This document shows, piece after piece, positions 9,859 through 48,120 of a stretch of DNA of 64,000 nt. Below the pieces are notes generated by a model, which worked only from the letters and a program-made list of their open reading frames with translations, searched no databases and had not been told where the DNA came from. This DNA is from Candidatus Adlerbacteria bacterium (GTDB lineage Bacteria; Patescibacteriota; Minisyncoccia; Phycocordibacterales; SBAW01), in assembly GCA_903878285.1 (NCBI GenBank), contig CAIRHB010000002.1, forward strand, positions 808-64,807, written 5' to 3'. Both the position numbers and the translations under genes were made by a program. Position 1 is the stretch's first letter; each line of letters starts with the position of its first letter.

Positions 9859-11193
9859 TTGTGGTGTATGACCAACACAACACAAGTGCCAGCGGGGACA
9901 CTGGCTCGGGCGGCGCAAGTCCCAATACCAGTAAAGTATTGTTTGTATGCTCGCAAGAGCACAGAGTCCGAGGAGCGGCAGGTGCTCTCCATCGACTCGC
10001 AAATCAAGGAGATGCTTCAGCTCGCCGAGCGTGAAGGACTCCAGATTGTCGCTATGAAACGCGAGTCGCACTCGGCGAAGGAGACGGGTCAGCGTCCCAT
10101 ATTCAACGAGATTGTCGAGGAGATAAAGGGCGGCAAATACAACGGCATCCTCACTTGGGCACCCGACCGCATCAGCCGCAATGCAGGCGACCTCGGCAAG
10201 ATAGTAGATCTCATGGACGCGGGTGGATTACAAGAGATACGCACCTACAGCCAAAGCTTCCGCAATAATCCGAACGAGAAGTTTTTACTGATGATACTCG
10301 GGAGCCAAGCAAAGCTCGAGAACGACAATCGCGGTATTAATGTAAAACGTGGTCTGCGCACCAGAGTGGAGATGGGGCTGTGGCCGACGACCCCACCGAC
10401 TGGCTACCTGACACAGAAGAATATGGAGAAAAAATGTCAGGTTATCATCGACCCAGAGCGTAGCCCCATCGTGCGTAAGATGTTCGAGAAAATGGCGTAT
10501 GAACATTGGTCGGGGCGCAAGATACATCACTGGCTCAAGTTCGAGCTGAACTTCAAGACGGTGGGTAACAAAAATCTCGCGCTCAGCAACATCTTCCGAA
10601 CGCTACAGAACCCCTTCTACTACGGAGTATTCGAGTACCCGAAAGCATCTGGAAACTGGTATACCGGCAAGCATGAACCACTGATAACCAAGGAGCTGTT
10701 CGAGCTTGTACAGACACAACTCAAGCGGGACAACATCACCCGACAAAGCCACGAGTTCGCTTTCACCAAACTCATTGTCTGCGGCAAGTGTGGATCATGC
10801 GTGAGTGCCGAGGAAAAGTACAAACCGCGCAAGGATGGGACCACGATACGATACGTCTACTACGGATGTGGCAGATCAAAAGACCATCACTGCAAAGGTA
10901 ACAAATACTTGCGCGAGGAAGATCTGGTCGAGCAACTGCTTGGCGTGCTTGATCAAATCGACCTCAACGTGCTCGGTGTACAGATAAAGTTCAAAGATGA
11001 GCTCAAGCGGCACAACAAATTCCAGCGCACGGTACTGGGACTATCAAACCCATCTGCCGAGCACGAAGATATCGACCTCAAGACCTATGCCAAATACATT
11101 CTCAAGGAGGGTACCATGGAGGAAAAGCGTGAACTGATGGGGTGCTTCAAGACAAAGCTCAAGATCACAGAGGGTGTTGTAACTATCGGCTAG
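9859..11193 (+). CDS. Large serine recombinase (phage-integrase type), copy A
   Basis: N-terminal resolvase catalytic domain (YARKST..SIDSQ), recombinase domain, and a Cys-rich zinc ribbon (CGKCGS...C..C). Length 444 aa. Confidence 0.9.
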   Translation: MWCMTNTTQVPAGTLARAAQVPIPVKYCLYARKSTESEERQVLSIDSQIKEMLQLAEREGLQIVAMKRESHSAKETGQRPIFNEIVEEIKGGKYNGILTWAPDRISRNAGDLGKIVDLMDAGGLQEIRTYSQSFRNNPNEKFLLMILGSQAKLENDNRGINVKRGLRTRVEMGLWPTTPPTGYLTQKNMEKKCQVIIDPERSPIVRKMFEKMAYEHWSGRKIHHWLKFELNFKTVGNKNLALSNIFRTLQNPFYYGVFEYPKASGNWYTGKHEPLITKELFELVQTQLKRDNITRQSHEFAFTKLIVCGKCGSCVSAEEKYKPRKDGTTIRYVYYGCGRSKDHHCKGNKYLREEDLVEQLLGVLDQIDLNVLGVQIKFKDELKRHNKFQRTVLGLSNPSAEHEDIDLKTYAKYILKEGTMEEKRELMGCFKTKLKITEGVVTIG

Positions 11194-40222: not shown

Positions 40223-42925
40223 CTACCGCACTTCCACTGTTTGCACACGTGCGACCCAGTGCCATAAATCGGTATTGGGCGGAGCAATCGAAATATTTAG
40301 ACACTGATTCGAGGTGTCAGCAGAAATGTTTGGTAACAACACCGCCCCAGTACCGACACCCTGCGCAACCCCATTATTACCGGAAACCCACGTCGCATTG
40401 CCCACACCTCGGTACAATACTCCACGTATACCAACGACGGAAGCGATGTTGCCAGCAGAAGCGGTATCTGTACCCACAAGCGAGGCTTCGACTGTATATG
40501 TTCTTGAGGTTGGTATATTGATGCAGTTCGTCGCGCTCGGCGCATTCCCGTCCGCAGTAAGCGTAGTAGGCGATGCACTTGTAGTTATTGCATGGAGTAT
40601 GAGCGTGCAGTATTGTGCGTCCCCCTGTCCAACACCCAAGTTCCCCGACGCGGAACAGTTACTACCAACACGACCACGATCCGTCGCATAACTTCCCGTC
40701 ACCATGGAGTAGTTCCCTGTCGCACTGTTCGCGATTCCCATTGCGACTGCTTGAGACGCATTCGCGGTGTTCGAAAGACCCATGGCGATTGTGCCAATCC
40801 CGTTACTTACGTTTCCACTCCCAATAGCGGTTGAGCTTGCTGCGTTGCTTGTATTATCGTTGCCAATAGCAATAGCCCCAGCACCGCTCGCGACATGCGA
40901 GTTTGATGTCCGCATTGGTTGTATCTCGACTGAGTTCGCCCCACGCGCACTGCCACCAAAACCCACGGACGTGTAAATTCCACTCATACTATTTTCTACC
41001 CATATGTTCGACGTCCCATTATCTGCCGCAGGCGAAGTTGTGTTTATGATGTTATTTTGAGACACGATATTGTTTGTCGCACCCGCATCAAGCGTGATAC
41101 CATTACCATCACCGCTGCCGCCCATAAATCCTGAGAAAACATTATTCGAAATGACACCATGACCCGCACCGTTACCAAAATAAAGTGCCGTACCACCTTG
41201 CGTGGGACTACCGAAGAACATATTGTTCGTAACCTGCGGTTCTAGGACACCTACGATATTCAGTTCATTCGCTGGCGACACTTCGCCATCAAAGAAATTG
41301 TTGTTAATCTGCACGCCAGTCAAAGTCCCTGCGCCCGACGTATCCAGATATACACCACGCATCACATACGAGTTTGACAAAACGAACTGCTCACCTGCAC
41401 CCGCGCTCGCATCCCAGAAGATTGACTGGGACGCCGCAGCAACATTCAATCCTCGCGCGATAACACCTTGTACGTAGGGACCGATGTAGAGAAAACGATA
41501 CCCGTTCCATGACACAATGTTGTCAAGCATGAGTCCAATGCTGTAAATGCCCGCTCCCACATCACCCTTGAAGGAGATCGCGGTTGAATTTGAGGAGAGA
41601 AAGAATGTTGAGTTGCTCACATACGCCTGCGTAGGTAGTTTTGTTATATCGATACCGAAGTTCCATGCACCCACAAAAGAACAATTCTCAACATAGAATG
41701 GATTCCCCTGCTGCCCACCAACCGCATTGGTTGTCACTTTGATAGCGCTTGAACCAGGCGTCGTGTTGGTATACGAGAGTGTCAGGTTCCGAAACCCGAC
41801 GTACTGTCCGTTTCTGGTAGTATAGTGTGCAATCTGTATATCGAACGCGTCCGCTTGCCCCGTCTGAGTAATGGTTGTGATGCCTGGACCTTGACCCTCA
41901 ATCATGAAGCCTTGTTGTGCGGACATGGCGACTGTTTGCGCGGCCGACAATTTGAAATTACCTGCTGGCAAAACAATCTTTGCACCAAAAGGTCTCGACA
42001 AAGCAGCAGTAATTGCGGCAGTAAATGCTGTATCACTGTTAGTCACTCCCGTAGGATCCGCCCCAGCGTATGACATGATCGATATTGTGTCTCCTGTCCA
42101 CGCTGCCAACGTCCTCGCCGTCGTCGCACCTGTTGCCAAGACAGTCGATGAACTGACATCACCACCAACACTGCTGCAGTCCGTCCCTGTGCCAGCCACA
42201 TTCCCACTCGCGTCAGTATGCAGACACTGAGCCGTGCCAACCGCATTAGAGAGACTGAGTGCCGGAATCGTTGTAGTTCCTGTAAGCGTCCCGCCCGAGA
42301 GGGGAAGATAGTTGCTTGCGGTAATGTTTGTTGGAATATCAGATGCGGTTAATCCCGAAACACCGTTCACCTGTGCACCGGAGATAGTGACGTTGTTGAG
42401 ACTGTTGATACGTTGCGAAGCAGCAATCGCGCCCCACACACCGCCACCTGCCATTGTGGACGTAGCACCGTAGAGTGCTTGGTGCAATTGCTCTTGAGTC
42501 ACAAGGTCAGTTTGCGTGGCATCGGGGGTACTGGTGGCGGTGGTCGTCGCCGTTGTTGTGGTAGTGCTTGTAGCAACAGAGGTTGTGCTGGTCAGCTTTT
42601 GCAGCAACGCGAGTGTCTTGGGACCTACTGAGCCCGTTGGTGTGAGTTTGTGTGTCTTCTGAAATGTGGTTACTGCTTTGGTAGTAGCCGGACCGTAGGT
42701 GCCATTAGGAGTTGCGGCAAGGAAACCTTGTGCTGCAAGAAACTGCTGCAGTGCAAGGACGTCAGCGCCATTGTCATTTTTGGTGAGGGTATGGGTGATA
42801 GACACTGTAGGTATTGCAGTAGTTACAACAGATGGAGAGGTTGTTGCGGTGGTGGTGGCAAAAACGAGCGCAGGGACAGACAGCAAAAAGATGGCAGTAG
42901 CTGCCACAGACGCGTTGTATTGCAT
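40223..42925 (-). CDS. Large secreted surface protein: signal peptide, peptidoglycan-binding domain, Thr/Ser-rich linkers, right-handed parallel beta-helix repeats
   Basis: PG_binding_1-like LALQQFLAAQGFL...GPKTLALL segment. The beta-helix region is very Gly/Asn/Ser/Thr-rich. The start was set at MQYNASVAATAIFLL, the signal peptide. The alternative upstream ATG at 42979 would read through the poly-C tract. Confidence 0.65.
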   Translation of the reverse strand: MQYNASVAATAIFLLSVPALVFATTTATTSPSVVTTAIPTVSITHTLTKNDNGADVLALQQFLAAQGFLAATPNGTYGPATTKAVTTFQKTHKLTPTGSVGPKTLALLQKLTSTTSVATSTTTTTATTTATSTPDATQTDLVTQEQLHQALYGATSTMAGGGVWGAIAASQRINSLNNVTISGAQVNGVSGLTASDIPTNITASNYLPLSGGTLTGTTTIPALSLSNAVGTAQCLHTDASGNVAGTGTDCSSVGGDVSSSTVLATGATTARTLAAWTGDTISIMSYAGADPTGVTNSDTAFTAAITAALSRPFGAKIVLPAGNFKLSAAQTVAMSAQQGFMIEGQGPGITTITQTGQADAFDIQIAHYTTRNGQYVGFRNLTLSYTNTTPGSSAIKVTTNAVGGQQGNPFYVENCSFVGAWNFGIDITKLPTQAYVSNSTFFLSSNSTAISFKGDVGAGIYSIGLMLDNIVSWNGYRFLYIGPYVQGVIARGLNVAAASQSIFWDASAGAGEQFVLSNSYVMRGVYLDTSGAGTLTGVQINNNFFDGEVSPANELNIVGVLEPQVTNNMFFGSPTQGGTALYFGNGAGHGVISNNVFSGFMGGSGDGNGITLDAGATNNIVSQNNIINTTSPAADNGTSNIWVENSMSGIYTSVGFGGSARGANSVEIQPMRTSNSHVASGAGAIAIGNDNTSNAASSTAIGSGNVSNGIGTIAMGLSNTANASQAVAMGIANSATGNYSMVTGSYATDRGRVGSNCSASGNLGVGQGDAQYCTLILHAITTSASPTTLTADGNAPSATNCINIPTSRTYTVEASLVGTDTASAGNIASVVGIRGVLYRGVGNATWVSGNNGVAQGVGTGAVLLPNISADTSNQCLNISIAPPNTDLWHWVARVQTVEVR

Positions 42926-42940
42926 GCTACCAGTGTGCCA

Positions 42941-42951
42941 CCCCCCCCCCC
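42941..42951. repeat. Homopolymeric C11 tract (G11 on the coding strand of the surface-protein gene)
   Basis: Eleven consecutive C read directly from the sequence, 16-26 nt upstream of the chosen start codon. Confidence 0.9.
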
Positions 42952-43004
42952 GCGATTGTGCAAGGTGGGTTGTACACAATACTAGGAAGGTAGATGCGCC
43001 ACTG

Positions 43005-44246
43005 TTATCGCACCGCTTTGGACACTGCTTCGACTACTCCATTGTCGAAGGGTCCGGGGATGATTTTGTTGGCAGTGGGGCGCTTGACTAACGCGGCGAG
43101 ATTCTTTGCAGCAGTGAGTTTCATCTTGTCGGTAATCTTGGATACGCGGCGATCGAGTGCACCGCGAAAGATGCCCGGAAAGACGAGCGAATTGTTAATT
43201 TGGTTGGGATAGTCGGAGCGACCAGTAGCGACGACTGCAGCACCACCTTTTTTTGCTTCGTCGGGTAGGATCTCGGGCACTGGGTTAGCAAGCGCAAAGA
43301 CAATTGGCTGCGCCGCCATCAGCTGCACCTCCTTCGCAGTCATGAGCCCTGGGCCGGAGACACCGACAACTACGTCTGCGCCCGTGAGCGCCTCCGCCAA
43401 ACCGCCCACGATACCGCGCGGATTCGTCTGCGACGCCAGCTCTTTTTTGTATCCCGACAGCTCTGGCCGTGCAGTACTCAAAATGCCTTTGCTGTCGAGC
43501 ACGATGATGTCTCTGACACCCGCAAGCAGCAGCAACTGAGTAATCGCTGTTCCCGCGGCACCAGCGCCCGAGACGACCACTTTCAACTTTTTAAAATTCT
43601 TTTTGACTATGACTGCTGCGTTGCTAAGCGCTGCAAGCACGACAATCGCCGTGCCATGTTGGTCGTCGTGCATCACGGGGATGTCGAGCGCCGCTTTGAC
43701 GCGCTCCTCTATCTCGAAGCAGTCGGGCGCGGCAAAATCCTCTAGGTTAATGCCACCAAACGCGGGTGCTATGGCGAGAATTGTCTCGACCACCACGTCG
43801 ATGCGCCGCTCGGCCGGCGTGTTGGCAGGGATGTCGAGCACGATCGGGAACGCGTCGACGTTCGCGAATGTTTTAAAGAGTGCGACTTTGCCCTCCATCA
43901 CTGGCAGCGCGCCGTAGGGGCCGATGTTGCCGAGCCCTAAGACGGCAGTGCCATCGGAGATAACCGCGACCATACGGCTTTTAATCGTATATTGTTTGGC
44001 AAGCGCAGATTGTTTGGAAACGGCATGCAGCGCACCCTTCTTGCCCGCAATGAGCGTCGACACCGCACCAACGCCCGGCGTGTACACGAGCGATAAATCT
44101 GCCCGCGTCTTAATCGGCGCCGCTGGCACCACACGAATCTTCCCCTGCAACTTCTTGTGTAACACAATCGCTTGCTGCGCAGTAGTTTCTTTCGTACCAC
44201 CCTTTGCCCCACTCTTCTTTGTACCCTTCGTGTGTTTGATAGCCAT
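43005..44246 (-). CDS. NAD(P)-dependent malic enzyme (short form)
   Basis: Motifs DLSLVYTPGV and VISDGTAVLGLGNIGP, plus the Rossmann motif VVSGAGAAG. Confidence 0.85.
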   Translation of the reverse strand: MAIKHTKGTKKSGAKGGTKETTAQQAIVLHKKLQGKIRVVPAAPIKTRADLSLVYTPGVGAVSTLIAGKKGALHAVSKQSALAKQYTIKSRMVAVISDGTAVLGLGNIGPYGALPVMEGKVALFKTFANVDAFPIVLDIPANTPAERRIDVVVETILAIAPAFGGINLEDFAAPDCFEIEERVKAALDIPVMHDDQHGTAIVVLAALSNAAVIVKKNFKKLKVVVSGAGAAGTAITQLLLLAGVRDIIVLDSKGILSTARPELSGYKKELASQTNPRGIVGGLAEALTGADVVVGVSGPGLMTAKEVQLMAAQPIVFALANPVPEILPDEAKKGGAAVVATGRSDYPNQINNSLVFPGIFRGALDRRVSKITDKMKLTAAKNLAALVKRPTANKIIPGPFDNGVVEAVSKAVR

Positions 44247-44285
44247 AGAGAGAGTATAGCAGAGTAAAACACCCTCCGACGAGAT

Positions 44286-44308
44286 CCGCCGAGGTTAAAC
44301 CTCGGCGG
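44286..44308. repeat. REP-like palindromic hairpin, copy 1 (CCGCCGAGGTT-A-AACCTCGGCGG)
   Basis: Palindrome with an 11-bp stem. It is identical to copy 3 over about 28 nt. Confidence 0.8.
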
Positions 44309-44329
44309 AAATAATAGCGAGACTCTGTA

Positions 44330-44815
44330 CTACAGATGACGCGGAGAAAGAACCGCAACAGCATTACCAGAAAATACCTGTTGCATTCTTCGTTCCAAGA
44401 CACGAACACCAACCTGTGTACCGATACTGGCAAAGCCTGCAGAGTTCTGGACAAGAAAGCGCACCTCTCCATCTGCCGTTGTTTCGAAGCCATAGACAAG
44501 CACAAAGTGACCACCCTTTCTCGGCGGCGAATTTTCCGTATGCAGTCGTATCTCTGGGTGCACCGAAGCCATAACATACCAACCCATGAGCAACCTGACA
44601 CGGATACACAACGTACTCATTCTACGCTCGGGTCGCGCAATAAGACCATGTCGCATCCACAGGGTCTCGGCGAGCTCTTGATGATAGGCGCCACGCCATC
44701 CTTTTTCTACACTTTCTATGCGGTACGCAGAACAATCGACCGCGCCGTAGAAAAGTCTTTCAAGAGGAGGCGCGACCATCCCTTCGGCCTTCAATATCAT
44801 TTGGAGGCAGCACAT
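44330..44815 (-). CDS. Hypothetical protein, possibly papain/C39-like peptidase fold
   Basis: There is a Cys near the N-terminus and a GGHFVLVYG block reminiscent of the C39-like His region. This is weak. The overlapping plus-strand ORF looks non-coding. Confidence 0.3.
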   Translation of the reverse strand: MCCLQMILKAEGMVAPPLERLFYGAVDCSAYRIESVEKGWRGAYHQELAETLWMRHGLIARPERRMSTLCIRVRLLMGWYVMASVHPEIRLHTENSPPRKGGHFVLVYGFETTADGEVRFLVQNSAGFASIGTQVGVRVLERRMQQVFSGNAVAVLSPRHL

Positions 44816-45064
44816 GGCACACCAATGAGCATTTGGCCGAGGAGATGCTTCGCATTAGAACTCTCAACCCAGCGCTCGACAGCTGACCGGTCGTCAATCT
44901 GGCAGGTATAGAAATCTGCCGGGTTGCGACCACGAAACAAGTCTGTCGATGTAGGAAAGTCTGCAAGACCCTCTAAACACATATGCTTTCTCCTTGTTTA
45001 CCGTTCCGAGGGCTAGAACTTGTATTTTTCAAGAAAAGTCACGGGGAAAAAACTTCCACACTAT

Positions 45065-45094
45065 CCGCCGAGGTTAAACCTCTAAACCTCGGCG
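45065..45094. repeat. REP-like hairpin, copy 2 (variant with enlarged loop)
   Basis: CCGCCGAGG-TTAAACCTCTAAA-CCTCGGCG. It lies 16 nt upstream of the RAYT start. Confidence 0.7.
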
Positions 45095-45109
45095 AAACAT
45101 GCTAGTATA

Positions 45110-45805
45110 TTGGGTATGGCAAACCGACCACCTCTTGCTATTGGGGAATGGTATCACTGCTACAATCGCGGCGTAGACAAGCGGCGTGTTTTTCATAATA
45201 AAGAATACTACGAACGATTTCTTTTTCTCCTTTATATCGCAAACAGAACCGAGCGCGTGCACACCTCGCACCTTAAAAGCACTCGGCTTGCTGAGGTGCT
45301 TGCCGATACCACACTGGACAACTACGAACCACTGGTTGAGATTGGTGCGTACACACTCATGCCAAACCATTTGCATATTGCAGTGCGAGAAATACGTGAT
45401 GGTGGGATAGCAACATTTATGCAAAAAGTTTTTACTGGGTATACGATGTATTTCAATAAGAGACATGAACGCACTGGCTCGCTATTTGCAAGCACGTACA
45501 AATCAAAACACGTTGACGACGATCGCTACATGAAACAACTCATCCACTATATACATCTCAATCCCGTAGAAATTATTGAACCTCGATGGAAAGAAGGAAA
45601 GGGTAATATTAAGAAAATAGAAAAATGGTTGCTCACCTATCCATATTCTAGCTTGCCCGATTTTAGTACCGACCGACCAGAGAAAAAAATACTCGGAACA
45701 ACGGTATTTGAGCTATTTGATAAAATCCCATCAGTACAAGAAATGCTTGAAGAAGCGCAAGAGTACTACCAATCCGCCGAGGTTAAACCTCGGCGGAAAG
45801 AATAA
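45110..45805 (+). CDS. REP-associated tyrosine transposase (RAYT; IS200/IS605-like HUH Y1 transposase)
   Basis: HUH motif NHLHIAV, a downstream Tyr in the YTMYFNKRH region, and REP hairpins on both sides. The 3' end of the ORF reads through REP copy 3 (SAEVKPRR). Confidence 0.75.
   Translation: MGMANRPPLAIGEWYHCYNRGVDKRRVFHNKEYYERFLFLLYIANRTERVHTSHLKSTRLAEVLADTTLDNYEPLVEIGAYTLMPNHLHIAVREIRDGGIATFMQKVFTGYTMYFNKRHERTGSLFASTYKSKHVDDDRYMKQLIHYIHLNPVEIIEPRWKEGKGNIKKIEKWLLTYPYSSLPDFSTDRPEKKILGTTVFELFDKIPSVQEMLEEAQEYYQSAEVKPRRKE
45774..45796. repeat. REP-like palindromic hairpin, copy 3
   Basis: Same 23-nt palindrome as copy 1. It overlaps the last codons of the RAYT gene and lies 12 nt upstream of the recG start. 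Confidence 0.8.
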
Positions 45806-45807
45806 CT

Positions 45808-48120
45808 ATGCAGCTTACCGATCAACTGACGGCGCATTTTCGGCTTGTAGAGGGGCAGCGGCAGGCGCTCACGAAATTGGGACTCAAGACCGTGCGTGAT
45901 CTGCTCTTCTACTTCCCTACTCGCTACGAGCAGGCAGGTGGCGAGGCGAGTGTCTCGGGGCTCGTGCTCGGGCAGGAGGCGACGCTCGTCGGCACGCTGG
46001 AGAAGTTGGAGACAAAGAAGTCGTGGAAGCGAAAGATCCCCGTGTCGGAGGGCTACCTGCGCGACCAGTCGGGGCGGATTAAGCTGATGTGGTTTAACCA
46101 GCCGTACATCGCGAAGATGTATTTGAATGGCACGTGGGTCAAGGCGGTCGGTAAGGTCGCGGGCAAAGAAGGGTCGCTCTACCTCGCCAACCCGCAGCTT
46201 GAGCGCGCCGCAATTAGCGAAGAAGGATTGTTTGAGCAGCCGGAAGCAACCATCGACCTCGACTCCCAAAAGAAAACACTGAGCACTGACACGAGCAGTA
46301 CCACAAAAACACCTGTGCAAGGGGTGGAGAAACATAAACTGTTTGCTGTCTATCCCGAAAGCCGCGGAATCACATCGCTCTGGTTTCGGCATGCGGTAGA
46401 GAAGATTCTTGCGGCACCATACGGAGGACCGACCTCCGGAGCGTTGTGGCATTTGATCGATACCATTGAGGATTATCTGCCAGCAGAGATGCTAAAAAGA
46501 TATAACTTGCCGACGCTCAAGACGGCGCTCGTGTGGATGCACACACCACAAAAAACAAGAGATGCTGACGCGGCACGCAAGCGGTTTGCGTTCGAAGAAG
46601 TATTTTTGATCCAACTGGCGAGGCGTCGCGAGCGAGCACGAGAGCTACGTGAGCAGAGCTACACTATCGATGCGCCCGCGAGTGACGTCAACGCGTTTAT
46701 GGCCGCATTCCCCTTCGCACCAACCAAGGCACAGCATCGCGCGATTGAAATTATTTTGGACGACATGAAAAGCGGCAAACCGATGTCGCGACTCTTGGAG
46801 GGCGACGTCGGATCGGGCAAGACGGCGGTCGCCGCAACTGCCGCTTTTTCTACGGTACATACACGCCCAACTGACAAGAAGACAGGACTCGCCGCACATG
46901 CTGGAACGCTACAAGTTGCATACATGGCACCAACGGAGATCTTGGCGAAGCAGCACTTTGAGTCGTTTATCAAATACTTTGAACATTTCCCCATTACCAT
47001 CGGACTCATCACCGGCAGCGGCTGTTACAAATTTCCCTCGAAAATATCTCGCGAAAAAGCAACACCAATTTCTCGCACACAACTGCTCAAACGGGTCGCG
47101 TCGGGCGAGATCGCGGCGCTCATCGGCACGCATGCACTGGTTGAAAAGTCGGTGCAGTTCAAACATCTTGCACTCGTGATTATCGACGAGCAGCATCGCT
47201 TCGGCACCAACCAGCGCAGAAAATTAGCAAAGAAAAAAATTGGTGAGGAGACATCCCTGCCGCATCTGCTGTCGATGACGGCGACACCGATCCCCCGCAC
47301 GCTCGCGCTCACCGCCTACGGCGACCTCGACCTCACACTACTCGACGAGATGCCGGCCGGCCGCAAGCGAATCATCACCGAGATTATCAAGCCGGAGAAA
47401 CGAGGTGCTGCCTACACACTGATGCACGAGCAGTTGCAAGAAGGCAGGCAAGCATATGTGATTTGCCCACGCATCGACGAGCCCGACCCAGAGAAGGCGT
47501 TTGCCCTGATGGCAAAGTCGGTGACCGCCGAGGCGAGGCGACTCAAAAAAGAAGTCTTCCCTGAGTACGAGCTGGCGATCCTCCACAGCAAGATGACCTC
47601 GAAGGAGAAAGACGACGTGATGGCGCGATTTGCAAGACATGAAATCGATATCTTGGTCGCAACCTCGGTGGTCGAGGTCGGTGTTAATGTCCCCAACGCA
47701 ACAATGATACTCATCGAGGGCGCCGAGCGTTTTGGTTTGGCACAGCTGCACCAACTGCGCGGACGTGTTGTTCGCTCGAATCATCAGGCATATTGCTTCG
47801 TCTGCCCCGAAAGTAAAGGCGAGCATACGTTGGCGCGACTCAAAGCGCTCGCCACAGCAAAAAACGGTTTCGAACTCGCCGAGCAGGACCTCTTGCAGCG
47901 CGGCCCGGGCGAGTTGGTCGGCCGCAGCACCTCGGGCGGCACGAGCGCGCGTCAGTGGGGCATCTCGGACATAGGCATGGAGGCGCTGAAAAATATAAAA
48001 CTGGTCGAAGCCGCACGCGCCGAGGCAATCACCCTTGTTGCACAGGATGAAACGCTAGCAACACATCCCCTACTCGCGCACGCACTCCACCTGCGAGCGC
48101 AGATGATGCACTTTGAGTAA
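45808..48120 (+). CDS. recG: ATP-dependent DNA helicase RecG
   Basis: Wedge domain, helicase motifs GDVGSGKT and DEQHRFG, and a C-terminal TRG motif region. 770 aa. Confidence 0.9.
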   Translation: MQLTDQLTAHFRLVEGQRQALTKLGLKTVRDLLFYFPTRYEQAGGEASVSGLVLGQEATLVGTLEKLETKKSWKRKIPVSEGYLRDQSGRIKLMWFNQPYIAKMYLNGTWVKAVGKVAGKEGSLYLANPQLERAAISEEGLFEQPEATIDLDSQKKTLSTDTSSTTKTPVQGVEKHKLFAVYPESRGITSLWFRHAVEKILAAPYGGPTSGALWHLIDTIEDYLPAEMLKRYNLPTLKTALVWMHTPQKTRDADAARKRFAFEEVFLIQLARRRERARELREQSYTIDAPASDVNAFMAAFPFAPTKAQHRAIEIILDDMKSGKPMSRLLEGDVGSGKTAVAATAAFSTVHTRPTDKKTGLAAHAGTLQVAYMAPTEILAKQHFESFIKYFEHFPITIGLITGSGCYKFPSKISREKATPISRTQLLKRVASGEIAALIGTHALVEKSVQFKHLALVIIDEQHRFGTNQRRKLAKKKIGEETSLPHLLSMTATPIPRTLALTAYGDLDLTLLDEMPAGRKRIITEIIKPEKRGAAYTLMHEQLQEGRQAYVICPRIDEPDPEKAFALMAKSVTAEARRLKKEVFPEYELAILHSKMTSKEKDDVMARFARHEIDILVATSVVEVGVNVPNATMILIEGAERFGLAQLHQLRGRVVRSNHQAYCFVCPESKGEHTLARLKALATAKNGFELAEQDLLQRGPGELVGRSTSGGTSARQWGISDIGMEALKNIKLVEAARAEAITLVAQDETLATHPLLAHALHLRAQMMHFE

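Follow-up and report, generated by a model that had tools for sequence, protein, structure and literature searches.

A probable hairpin-bounded cassette with a RAYT-like Y1 nuclease gene in a Candidatus Adlerbacteria genome

A REPtron is reportedly an E. coli-type TnpA-REP gene, or REP-associated tyrosine transposase (RAYT) gene, flanked by its cognate repetitive extragenic palindromes (REPs). Outside Proteobacteria and a few other phyla, RAYT/REP systems have hardly been characterised, and a term search of the RAYT survey found no mention of lineages of the Candidate Phyla Radiation (CPR) (Quentin 2018, PMC6006769). In that survey, Y---NP marks the class 2 (RAYT-like) TnpAY1 proteins, and IS200 TnpA carries Y---Q with DH[VI]H; IS200 TnpA of subclass 1.1 has DH[VI]H, Y[IV]ENQ and about 150 aa, and subclass 2.1 has NH[YF]H or NHVH, Y[IV]HLNP and about 238 aa (PMC6006769). 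Subclass 2.1 (Quentin 2018, PMC6006769) comprises the TIRYT proteins of TIRtrons (Di Nocera 2013, PMC3733652). Here we analysed a 64,000-nt stretch of contig CAIRHB010000002.1 from a Candidatus Adlerbacteria bacterium (the window), in which a Y1 HUH nuclease gene is accompanied by three palindromes between the genes for malic enzyme and RecG. We consider it probable that positions ~44284-45800 form a hairpin-bounded cassette in this intergenic region, with a RAYT-like Y1 nuclease and palindromes that are its cognate single-stranded DNA (ssDNA) sites. On our best reading, the protein and layout of the cassette resemble those of a REPtron or TIRtron, and its movement as a block resembles that of an IS200 insertion sequence (IS).

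The gene order from 43800 to 46300 is malic enzyme, palindrome, a split pair of open reading frames (ORFs), variant palindrome, a 229-aa ORF containing the third palindrome, and recG. The 229-aa ORF (45116..45805, plus strand) encodes the nuclease. A preliminary description of this DNA had started it at TTG 45110 to give 231 aa; we place the start at ATG 45116 instead, and the product then begins MANRPP..., as in homologues. It carries the HUH motif NHLHIAV (H85-L-H87) and YIHLNP at residues 145-150 (Y145, N149-P150), and H85, H87, Y145 and N149 are invariant in an alignment with 25 homologues, within the motifs PNH(L/F)H and Y(I/V)HLNP. The match to Y1_Tnp (Pfam PF01797) scored 30 bits against a cut-off of 23. 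The sole NCBIfam match was REP_Tyr_transpos (NF047646; 39.1 bits, E 6.2e-10), short of the 80 bits set for the curated RAYT equivalog. The model search suggested earlier as a check was thus positive for Y1_Tnp and below the cut-off for the RAYT model. All 25 of the 25 family members tested match both models, none with a better REP_Tyr_transpos E-value than the window protein, and therefore none is likely to reach 80 bits.

The AlphaFold2 (AF2) model of the nuclease (pLDDT 85, pTM 0.84) has the predicted order beta1-alphaA-beta2-beta3(HUH)-alphaC-beta4-alphaD(Tyr). Its closest fold in the PDB is 4ER8_A, in which the E. coli RAYT is bound to a REP hairpin (E 4.6e-5, TM score 0.66 on the target), followed by the TnpA proteins of IS608 and ISDra2 at E ~1e-2. 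Judged by motifs and predicted fold, the nuclease is an intact Y1 HUH enzyme of the RAYT-like class and not of the IS200 class. The original assignment to the Y1/TnpA-REP type is borne out by the Y---NP motif, the only NCBIfam match and the best fold. The nuclease had no PHROG or PADLOC match and no close relatives in phage or plasmid collections, and a phage or defence-system reading was dropped on these grounds.

Hairpin copy 1 (44284..44316, plus strand) is the left boundary of the unit and contains a perfect 25-nt palindrome, TCCGCCGAGGTT-A-AACCTCGGCGGA, at 44285-44309. The same palindrome recurs at 45773-45797 within hairpin copy 3 (45772..45804, plus strand), the right boundary. As described before, this copy lies in the last codons of the gene, where it encodes the C-terminal end of the nuclease (...SAEVKPRRKE*). 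The 23-mer CCGCCGAGGTTAAACCTCGGCGG, first given as the palindrome, is exact at 44286-44308 and 45774-45796 (expectation in shuffled sequence, 0); the true length is 25 nt, and the variant noted before the gene start spans 45063-45095. The whole repeat unit measures 33 nt, ATCCGCCGAGGTTAAACCTCGGCGGAAAnAATA, with 97% identity between copies 1 and 3. Copy 2 (45063..45095, plus strand) is the same hairpin carrying an 8-nt tandem duplication of TAAACCTC, which gives a 10-bp stem and a 9-nt loop centred ~35 nt upstream of the ATG. The 13-nt core GAGGTTNAACCTC is found three times (44291, 45070 and 45779), with no further copy in the window when one mismatch is allowed. Folding energies as ssDNA are -14.6 kcal/mol for copies 1 and 3 and -12.2 kcal/mol for copy 2, with z-scores of -7 to -9 (-7.4 for copy 1).

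All three copies have loop base A on the same strand. In hairpin 3 the A means that the stop codon is lost and six extra codons (KPRRKE) are read; where a relative has T in the loop, the stop codon (GAG GTT TAA) comes from the loop itself, and in many members the translated hairpin forms the C-terminal tail (...EV*, ...KVKP*, RRGLTSA). The feet of the three hairpins in the window are GAGATCCGCC..., ACTATCCGCC... and CCAATCCGCC..., and the GT[AG]G tetranucleotide of canonical REPs is absent from their 5' sides; a GTAG...CTAC foot is present in a few relatives (L006, L124). Rfam gave no match within 43900-46100. The codons of a conserved IEPRWKEG motif inside the gene (45576-45595) are 85% identical over 20 nt to 45783-45802, the EVKPRRKE-coding stretch, and this resemblance to the 3' half and flank of hairpin 3 may be due to chance.

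A protein search returned 918 sequence clusters, with identities of 54-64% among the best 120, and the named sources of family members are all Patescibacteria (Paceibacterota, Kaiserbacteria and 'Patescibacteria group'). The genomic background had been called noteworthy for a system of this kind, and Patescibacteria indeed lie outside the phyla with described RAYTs (PMC6006769). In the searchable literature on RAYT or IS200 in Patescibacteria/CPR we found no description of this nuclease family. Hairpins were surveyed by a script scan of 80 metagenomic loci. In 43 of the 80, one perfect palindrome (7-nt apex arm identical) stands upstream of the ATG and again at the stop codon or close to it, its upstream centre lying 19-44 nt before the ATG in 42 loci and 93 nt before it in the other (L166). 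For a family-wide definition the apex was taken as two pairs, AGG-N5-CCT and two pairs (NN-AGG-N5-CCT-NN), with an upstream zone of 15-80 nt before the ATG, and 75 loci were scored. Such hairpins were present upstream in 57/75 loci, downstream at the stop codon in 53/75 and on both sides in 49/75, compared to 3/1124 control windows. Hairpin 2 of the window is placed like the upstream hairpin of the 57 loci. We concluded that the paired palindrome around the gene, already pointed out for this locus in the preliminary description, is a conserved and non-random feature of the family.

The lower stems vary by lineage. The type of apex goes with protein similarity: GGTT-type arms were seen only where identity to the window protein is at least 51%, and GGCG, GGTG and GGTC arms only where it is at most 48%. 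In some loci the upstream copy differs from the downstream one, with compensation that leaves the stem perfect, and across the 43 loci the loop bases have the same orientation in 28 and are flipped in 15. Comparison of the upstream and downstream copies across these 43 loci gave no evident guide or target motif outside the palindrome. The Kaiserbacteria CP066682 homologue has ACCGAGGTTTAACCTCGGT hairpins upstream, one of them partly duplicated, and the same hairpin at the gene end with the stop codon; a JGI contig homologue has this layout with a distinct flanking hairpin, TAGCAAGG-CGAAA-CCTTGCTA. Four relatives carry their own flanking palindrome in-frame within the nuclease gene at residues 55-62 (L170 777, L161 10177, L183 10175 and L108 1747; translated, e.g., SRQGPTLPE), and in each of them all three copies have the same sequence. 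Partial arm duplications are found beside or inside palindromes in the window (45083-45090), in L001 (9920-9936) and in L123, L130, L185, L188, L011, L026 and L092; these could have been left by successive rounds of cleavage and rejoining, or have arisen through hairpin slippage.

Like the TIRYT proteins of subclass 2.1, members of this family are ~230-240 aa long, have a C-terminal tail and are low in copy number, and their flanking repeats can extend into the ends of the gene and seldom multiply within a genome. In its consensus, NHFHF and Y[IV]HLNP, the family also resembles the NH[YF]H and Y[IV]HLNP of subclass 2.1, a likeness at the level of motifs (Table 1, PMC6006769). The family differs in that a self-complementary hairpin stands at each end, whereas subclass 2.1 is reported without REP-like secondary structures, in the conserved apex, which is not that of the GGGGWSAS terminal inverted repeats of TIRYT elements, and in the W motif, which is FA here and W[EQ] or FQ in subclass 2.1.

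Comparison with the closest other species, here called the sister species (L211 and L212; malic enzyme identity 88%), bears on the limits of the unit. There, recG and the malic enzyme gene are divergent with starts ~58 nt apart, compared to 1561 nt for the same interval in the window. Homology of the flanks, including the malic enzyme -10 box TGCTATACT, reaches hairpin 1 and resumes just after hairpin 3. These boundaries were read directly from the flanks; a cheap-gap global alignment across the insertion scattered spuriously. Given the ~58-nt spacing and the homology break at hairpins 1 and 3, we take ~44284-45800 to be an insertion, or else a segment precisely lost from the sister species, apparently delimited by these two hairpins. 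The whole inserted unit (44284..45800, no strand assigned) comprises hairpin 1, a passenger pseudogene, hairpin 2, a promoter, the Y1 gene and hairpin 3. The sequence of 44201-45900 is 100% identical in eight independent assemblies of the same species, so that the frameshift in the passenger and the variant hairpin are real and an assembly artefact is excluded. The recG gene starts at 45808, 2 nt past the nuclease stop codon and 11 nt past hairpin 3, and is probably read through hairpin 3. The promoter-like TATGAT box of the sister recG is missing in the window, and the insertion appears to have replaced the recG promoter.

The G+C content (GC) of the inserted unit is 0.47 and that of the flanking genes 0.56. 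The nuclease gene is below its flanks in GC in 46/46 loci, by a mean of 7.9 points, and tracks the GC of the host, which suggests long residence rather than recent transfer. Two CPR genomes (Kaiserbacteria CP066682 and the JGI contig) share an smc-rnc-nusB-rnhB-dnaE backbone and have the nuclease unit at different junctions, which fits mobility of the unit. In locus L004, a ~36-nt duplicate of the gyrB 3' end (9886-9925 and 10867-10900), with synonymous differences only, flanks the nuclease unit, and an outer GAGGTTAAACCTC hairpin pair (9427 and 10826) surrounds the inner pair and a 99-aa ORF.

Insertion as a block brings in the possibility of an ordinary IS200/IS605-family insertion sequence, with TnpA and left and right subterminal hairpins, that happens to be single-copy here. 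The locus resembles IS608 and ISDra2 in its Y1 HUH core, in the hairpin-ended insertion of a whole unit with a possible passenger segment and in a probable dependence on ssDNA; placement of the gene between same-strand hairpins with a common loop base fits as well, and so does the low GC of the gene. The enzyme itself is of another class, with Y---NP and NH[LF]H here vs. Y---Q and DH[VI]H in IS200 TnpA (PMC6006769, Table 1), 229 aa with a conserved C-terminal domain vs. ~150 aa, and a fold E-value of ~1e-2 for IS200-type TnpA vs. 5e-5 for the RAYT. None of the IS200 models in NCBIfam matched the window protein. Both ends are the same perfect palindrome, whereas IS200/IS605 elements have distinct and imperfect left and right ends. 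Near-identical multiple copies were not seen: there is one copy in 64 kb, and relatives are 40-64% identical and mostly present once per contig. Close relatives were not found in phage or plasmid collections. The alternative that the protein is a classical IS200 TnpA, raised in the preliminary description, is thus disfavoured by models, motifs and fold alike, and we regard an ordinary IS200/IS605 element as very unlikely.

A further possibility is a genuine REP/RAYT system, in which the palindrome is dispersed in high copy number elsewhere in the genome, the gene is a single-copy domesticated RAYT and the window holds its REPtron. In favour of it are the RAYT-like protein class and fold (Y1 HUH with Y---NP, 4ER8 as best structural match), a single-copy gene between repeats of one palindrome, palindromes that vary between lineages together with the protein, and in-frame hairpin insertions in the gene of some relatives, which recall RAYT subclass 2.4 (PMC6006769). 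The preliminary description had called the palindromes REPs; in the sense of a dispersed repeat this name is not supported by the 64 kb analysed, which gave the outcome named there as refuting it, a palindrome confined to this one place. All three copies lie within one insertion, and no palindrome or core copy occurs outside it in the ~62 kb of flanking genome in the window. For a genome of typical CPR size, ~62 kb probably corresponds to several percent of the total. Within the window, apex-type hairpins are at background rate; a CGGAGG-ACCGA-CCTCCG hairpin of this type inside the recG coding sequence (46423-46439) is a single match that fits the rate of 0.27% per 66-nt window. The 325 kb flanking the 43 related genes hold only 4 additional copies, 0.4-3.3 kb from the gene. 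From REPtrons the system differs in its palindromes, which are perfect and share the AGG-N5-CCT apex family-wide, with no GT[AG]G guide at the foot in the window, and in its 229-aa protein, which carries an additional conserved C-terminal domain and at 39 bits stays below the RAYT cut-off of 80. The unit is absent as one block from the sister-species site, which is IS-like; REPtrons, by contrast, reportedly do not move as whole units (PMC6006769).

Some other CPR genomes hold many GAGGTTNAACCTC hairpins distant from Y1 genes, as the REP/RAYT possibility would have it. In Paceibacterota LejiaA_44_14 there are 15 such hairpins with varied lower stems, in intergenic clusters on three 8-kb stretches (L031, L087 and L097) within which no nuclease gene was found; these arrays look like REPs or bacterial interspersed mosaic elements (BIMEs). 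For Kaiserbacteria UBA10103, at least 7 copies spread over 5 contigs are among the matches listed in a public-genome scan for CCGAGGTTNAACCTCGG, and CP066682 has one copy ~350 kb from its nuclease gene. The public-genome counts are lower bounds in which CPR matches are mixed with chance terminator-like hairpins, the scan being noisy because many Firmicutes terminators contain this 17-mer by chance. The multi-copy genomes and the copies inside genes indicate that hairpin amplification occurs in the family; it is not general there, and none was seen in the window. Overall, we consider a genuine REP/RAYT system unlikely for this locus. On one 606-kb contig (CAWDSG010000002.1; L007, L066, L078, L102 and L103) at least 6 dispersed copies of GTTGATAAAAACC-CCGAGGTTNAACCTCGG-GGTTTTT were found, a repeated terminator-like element with a conserved flank.

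The surroundings of the nuclease start raise the question of regulation. The sequence TGCTAGTAT at 45100..45108 (plus strand), a putative extended -10 promoter proposed from -10-like boxes in related loci, ends 7 nt before the nuclease ATG. In most related loci the stretch from the hairpin to the ATG contains a -10-like box (TATAAT, TATACT or TAGTAT, in many cases after TGn) that ends 6-9 nt 5' of the ATG, and such nearness suggests a leaderless nuclease mRNA. The nuclease gene thus probably has its own -10 promoter and a leaderless mRNA, as far as can be read from the sequence. The malic enzyme -10 box TGCTATACT is likewise followed by 6 nt and then the ATG (44247-44270), and the sister recG has TATGAT, AGAGAC and ATG in succession at the empty site of L211. 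Leaderless mRNAs, suggested by these boxes directly 5' of the ATG, may be common in the source organism.

The palindromes might be mainly regulatory, as insulating terminators and a promoter operator that travel with the gene, the substrate of the nuclease being another. The upstream hairpin abuts the -10 box and is constrained to 19-44 nt from the ATG in most shared-hairpin loci, the downstream hairpin stands at the end of the mRNA, and CCGAGGTTNAACCTCGG is shared with ordinary terminator stems before a T-run in many unrelated bacteria (Firmicutes and other phyla). The palindromes in the window have no T-run and received no terminator call in a promoter/terminator scan. As recG begins 11 nt past hairpin 3 and its sister-type promoter is lost, an efficient terminator there would silence recG. 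A terminator and an operator need neither mutual identity, nor lineage co-variation with a conserved apex, nor copies in the coding region, and the insertion boundaries coincide with the hairpins. A purely regulatory role is, in our view, improbable.

We therefore favour the hairpin-bounded cassette in which the palindromes are sites of the nuclease itself, and the following steps are proposed on the model of IS608 TnpA and TnpA-REP of E. coli. In ssDNA, such as the lagging-strand template, the palindromes would extrude as hairpins. A dimeric nuclease would bind the conserved apex RAGG-N5-CCTY and cleave beside the hairpin by means of Tyr145 and the HUH-bound metal, after which the strands would be rejoined. 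Hairpins could thereby be moved, copied or flipped, and occasionally the whole hairpin-to-hairpin unit would be moved; the nuclease may be active in this way at the present day. Two of the hairpins bracket the nuclease gene, the arrangement of most family members, and the third closes off the now-frameshifted passenger ORF. With a promoter just after the upstream hairpin and a probably leaderless mRNA, binding of the hairpin could also autoregulate the nuclease gene.

Several points weigh against this cassette interpretation. The RAYT equivalog cut-off is missed, and a family-profile search of PDB sequences gave no match. The identical flanking palindromes could stay alike by gene conversion, with no action of the enzyme, and a deletion in the sister lineage could have produced the empty site. 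Because the intergenic DNA has diverged (88% protein identity), the boundaries are good to a few nucleotides. In the 64 kb the nuclease gene is present once and the unit has no recent duplicate, which lends no support to present-day mobility.

A bolder reading is that the family consists of self-mobilising RAYTs, an extant transitional form between transposons of the IS200 type and domesticated REPtrons; we regard this as possible but rather doubtful. The enzyme would then generate and homogenise perfect palindromes with the AGG-N5-CCT apex, perhaps by fold-back copying, which would explain the compensatory stem differences, the flipped loop bases, the partial-arm duplications and the in-frame gene copies. 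The hairpin-to-hairpin cassette could trap passenger genes and, in some genomes, would seed REP/BIME-like intergenic arrays.

For the cassette as we prefer to read it, the locus is one instance of a large, uncharacterised and CPR-specific family in Patescibacteria. The nuclease gene, its promoter and two hairpin sites make a compact unit recognisable by sequence, and the apex conserved throughout the family offers a directly testable protein-DNA recognition code. The unit occurs as a block insertion and, in some genomes, beside amplified hairpin arrays. Taken together, these properties make the family a good system for the origin of REP-like repeats from transposons. For the annotation of reduced genomes it matters that the base in a hairpin loop gives or removes a stop codon, and that the recG promoter was apparently replaced by an insertion.

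The passenger ORF (44330..44982, minus strand) is broken by a frameshift into 44797-44982 (61 aa) and 44330-44815 (about 156-161 aa). The small gene beside hairpin 1 in the preliminary description is therefore present as an ORF, as a frameshifted pair and not as one small gene. Intact homologues of ~220 aa (P0242-P0245, 41-53% identity) are found in other CPR assemblies, one of them between uvrC and ddl (L213). Neither the passenger ORF nor its homologues matched Pfam, PHROG or PADLOC. The passenger was rejected as regular cargo of the unit, since intact homologues stand in unrelated contexts without hairpins or Y1 genes and the upstream ORFs in other loci are non-homologous.

On the other side of hairpin 1, the malic enzyme gene (43005-44246, minus strand) is adjoined by a gene for a 918-aa protein with PG_binding_1 and pectate-lyase-like repeats (40223-42979, minus strand). 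This gene is missing in the sister species, where an 80-aa ORF is found, plus a ParE-like ORF in L211. The gene for the 918-aa protein is a second insertion or deletion difference between the window species and the sister species.

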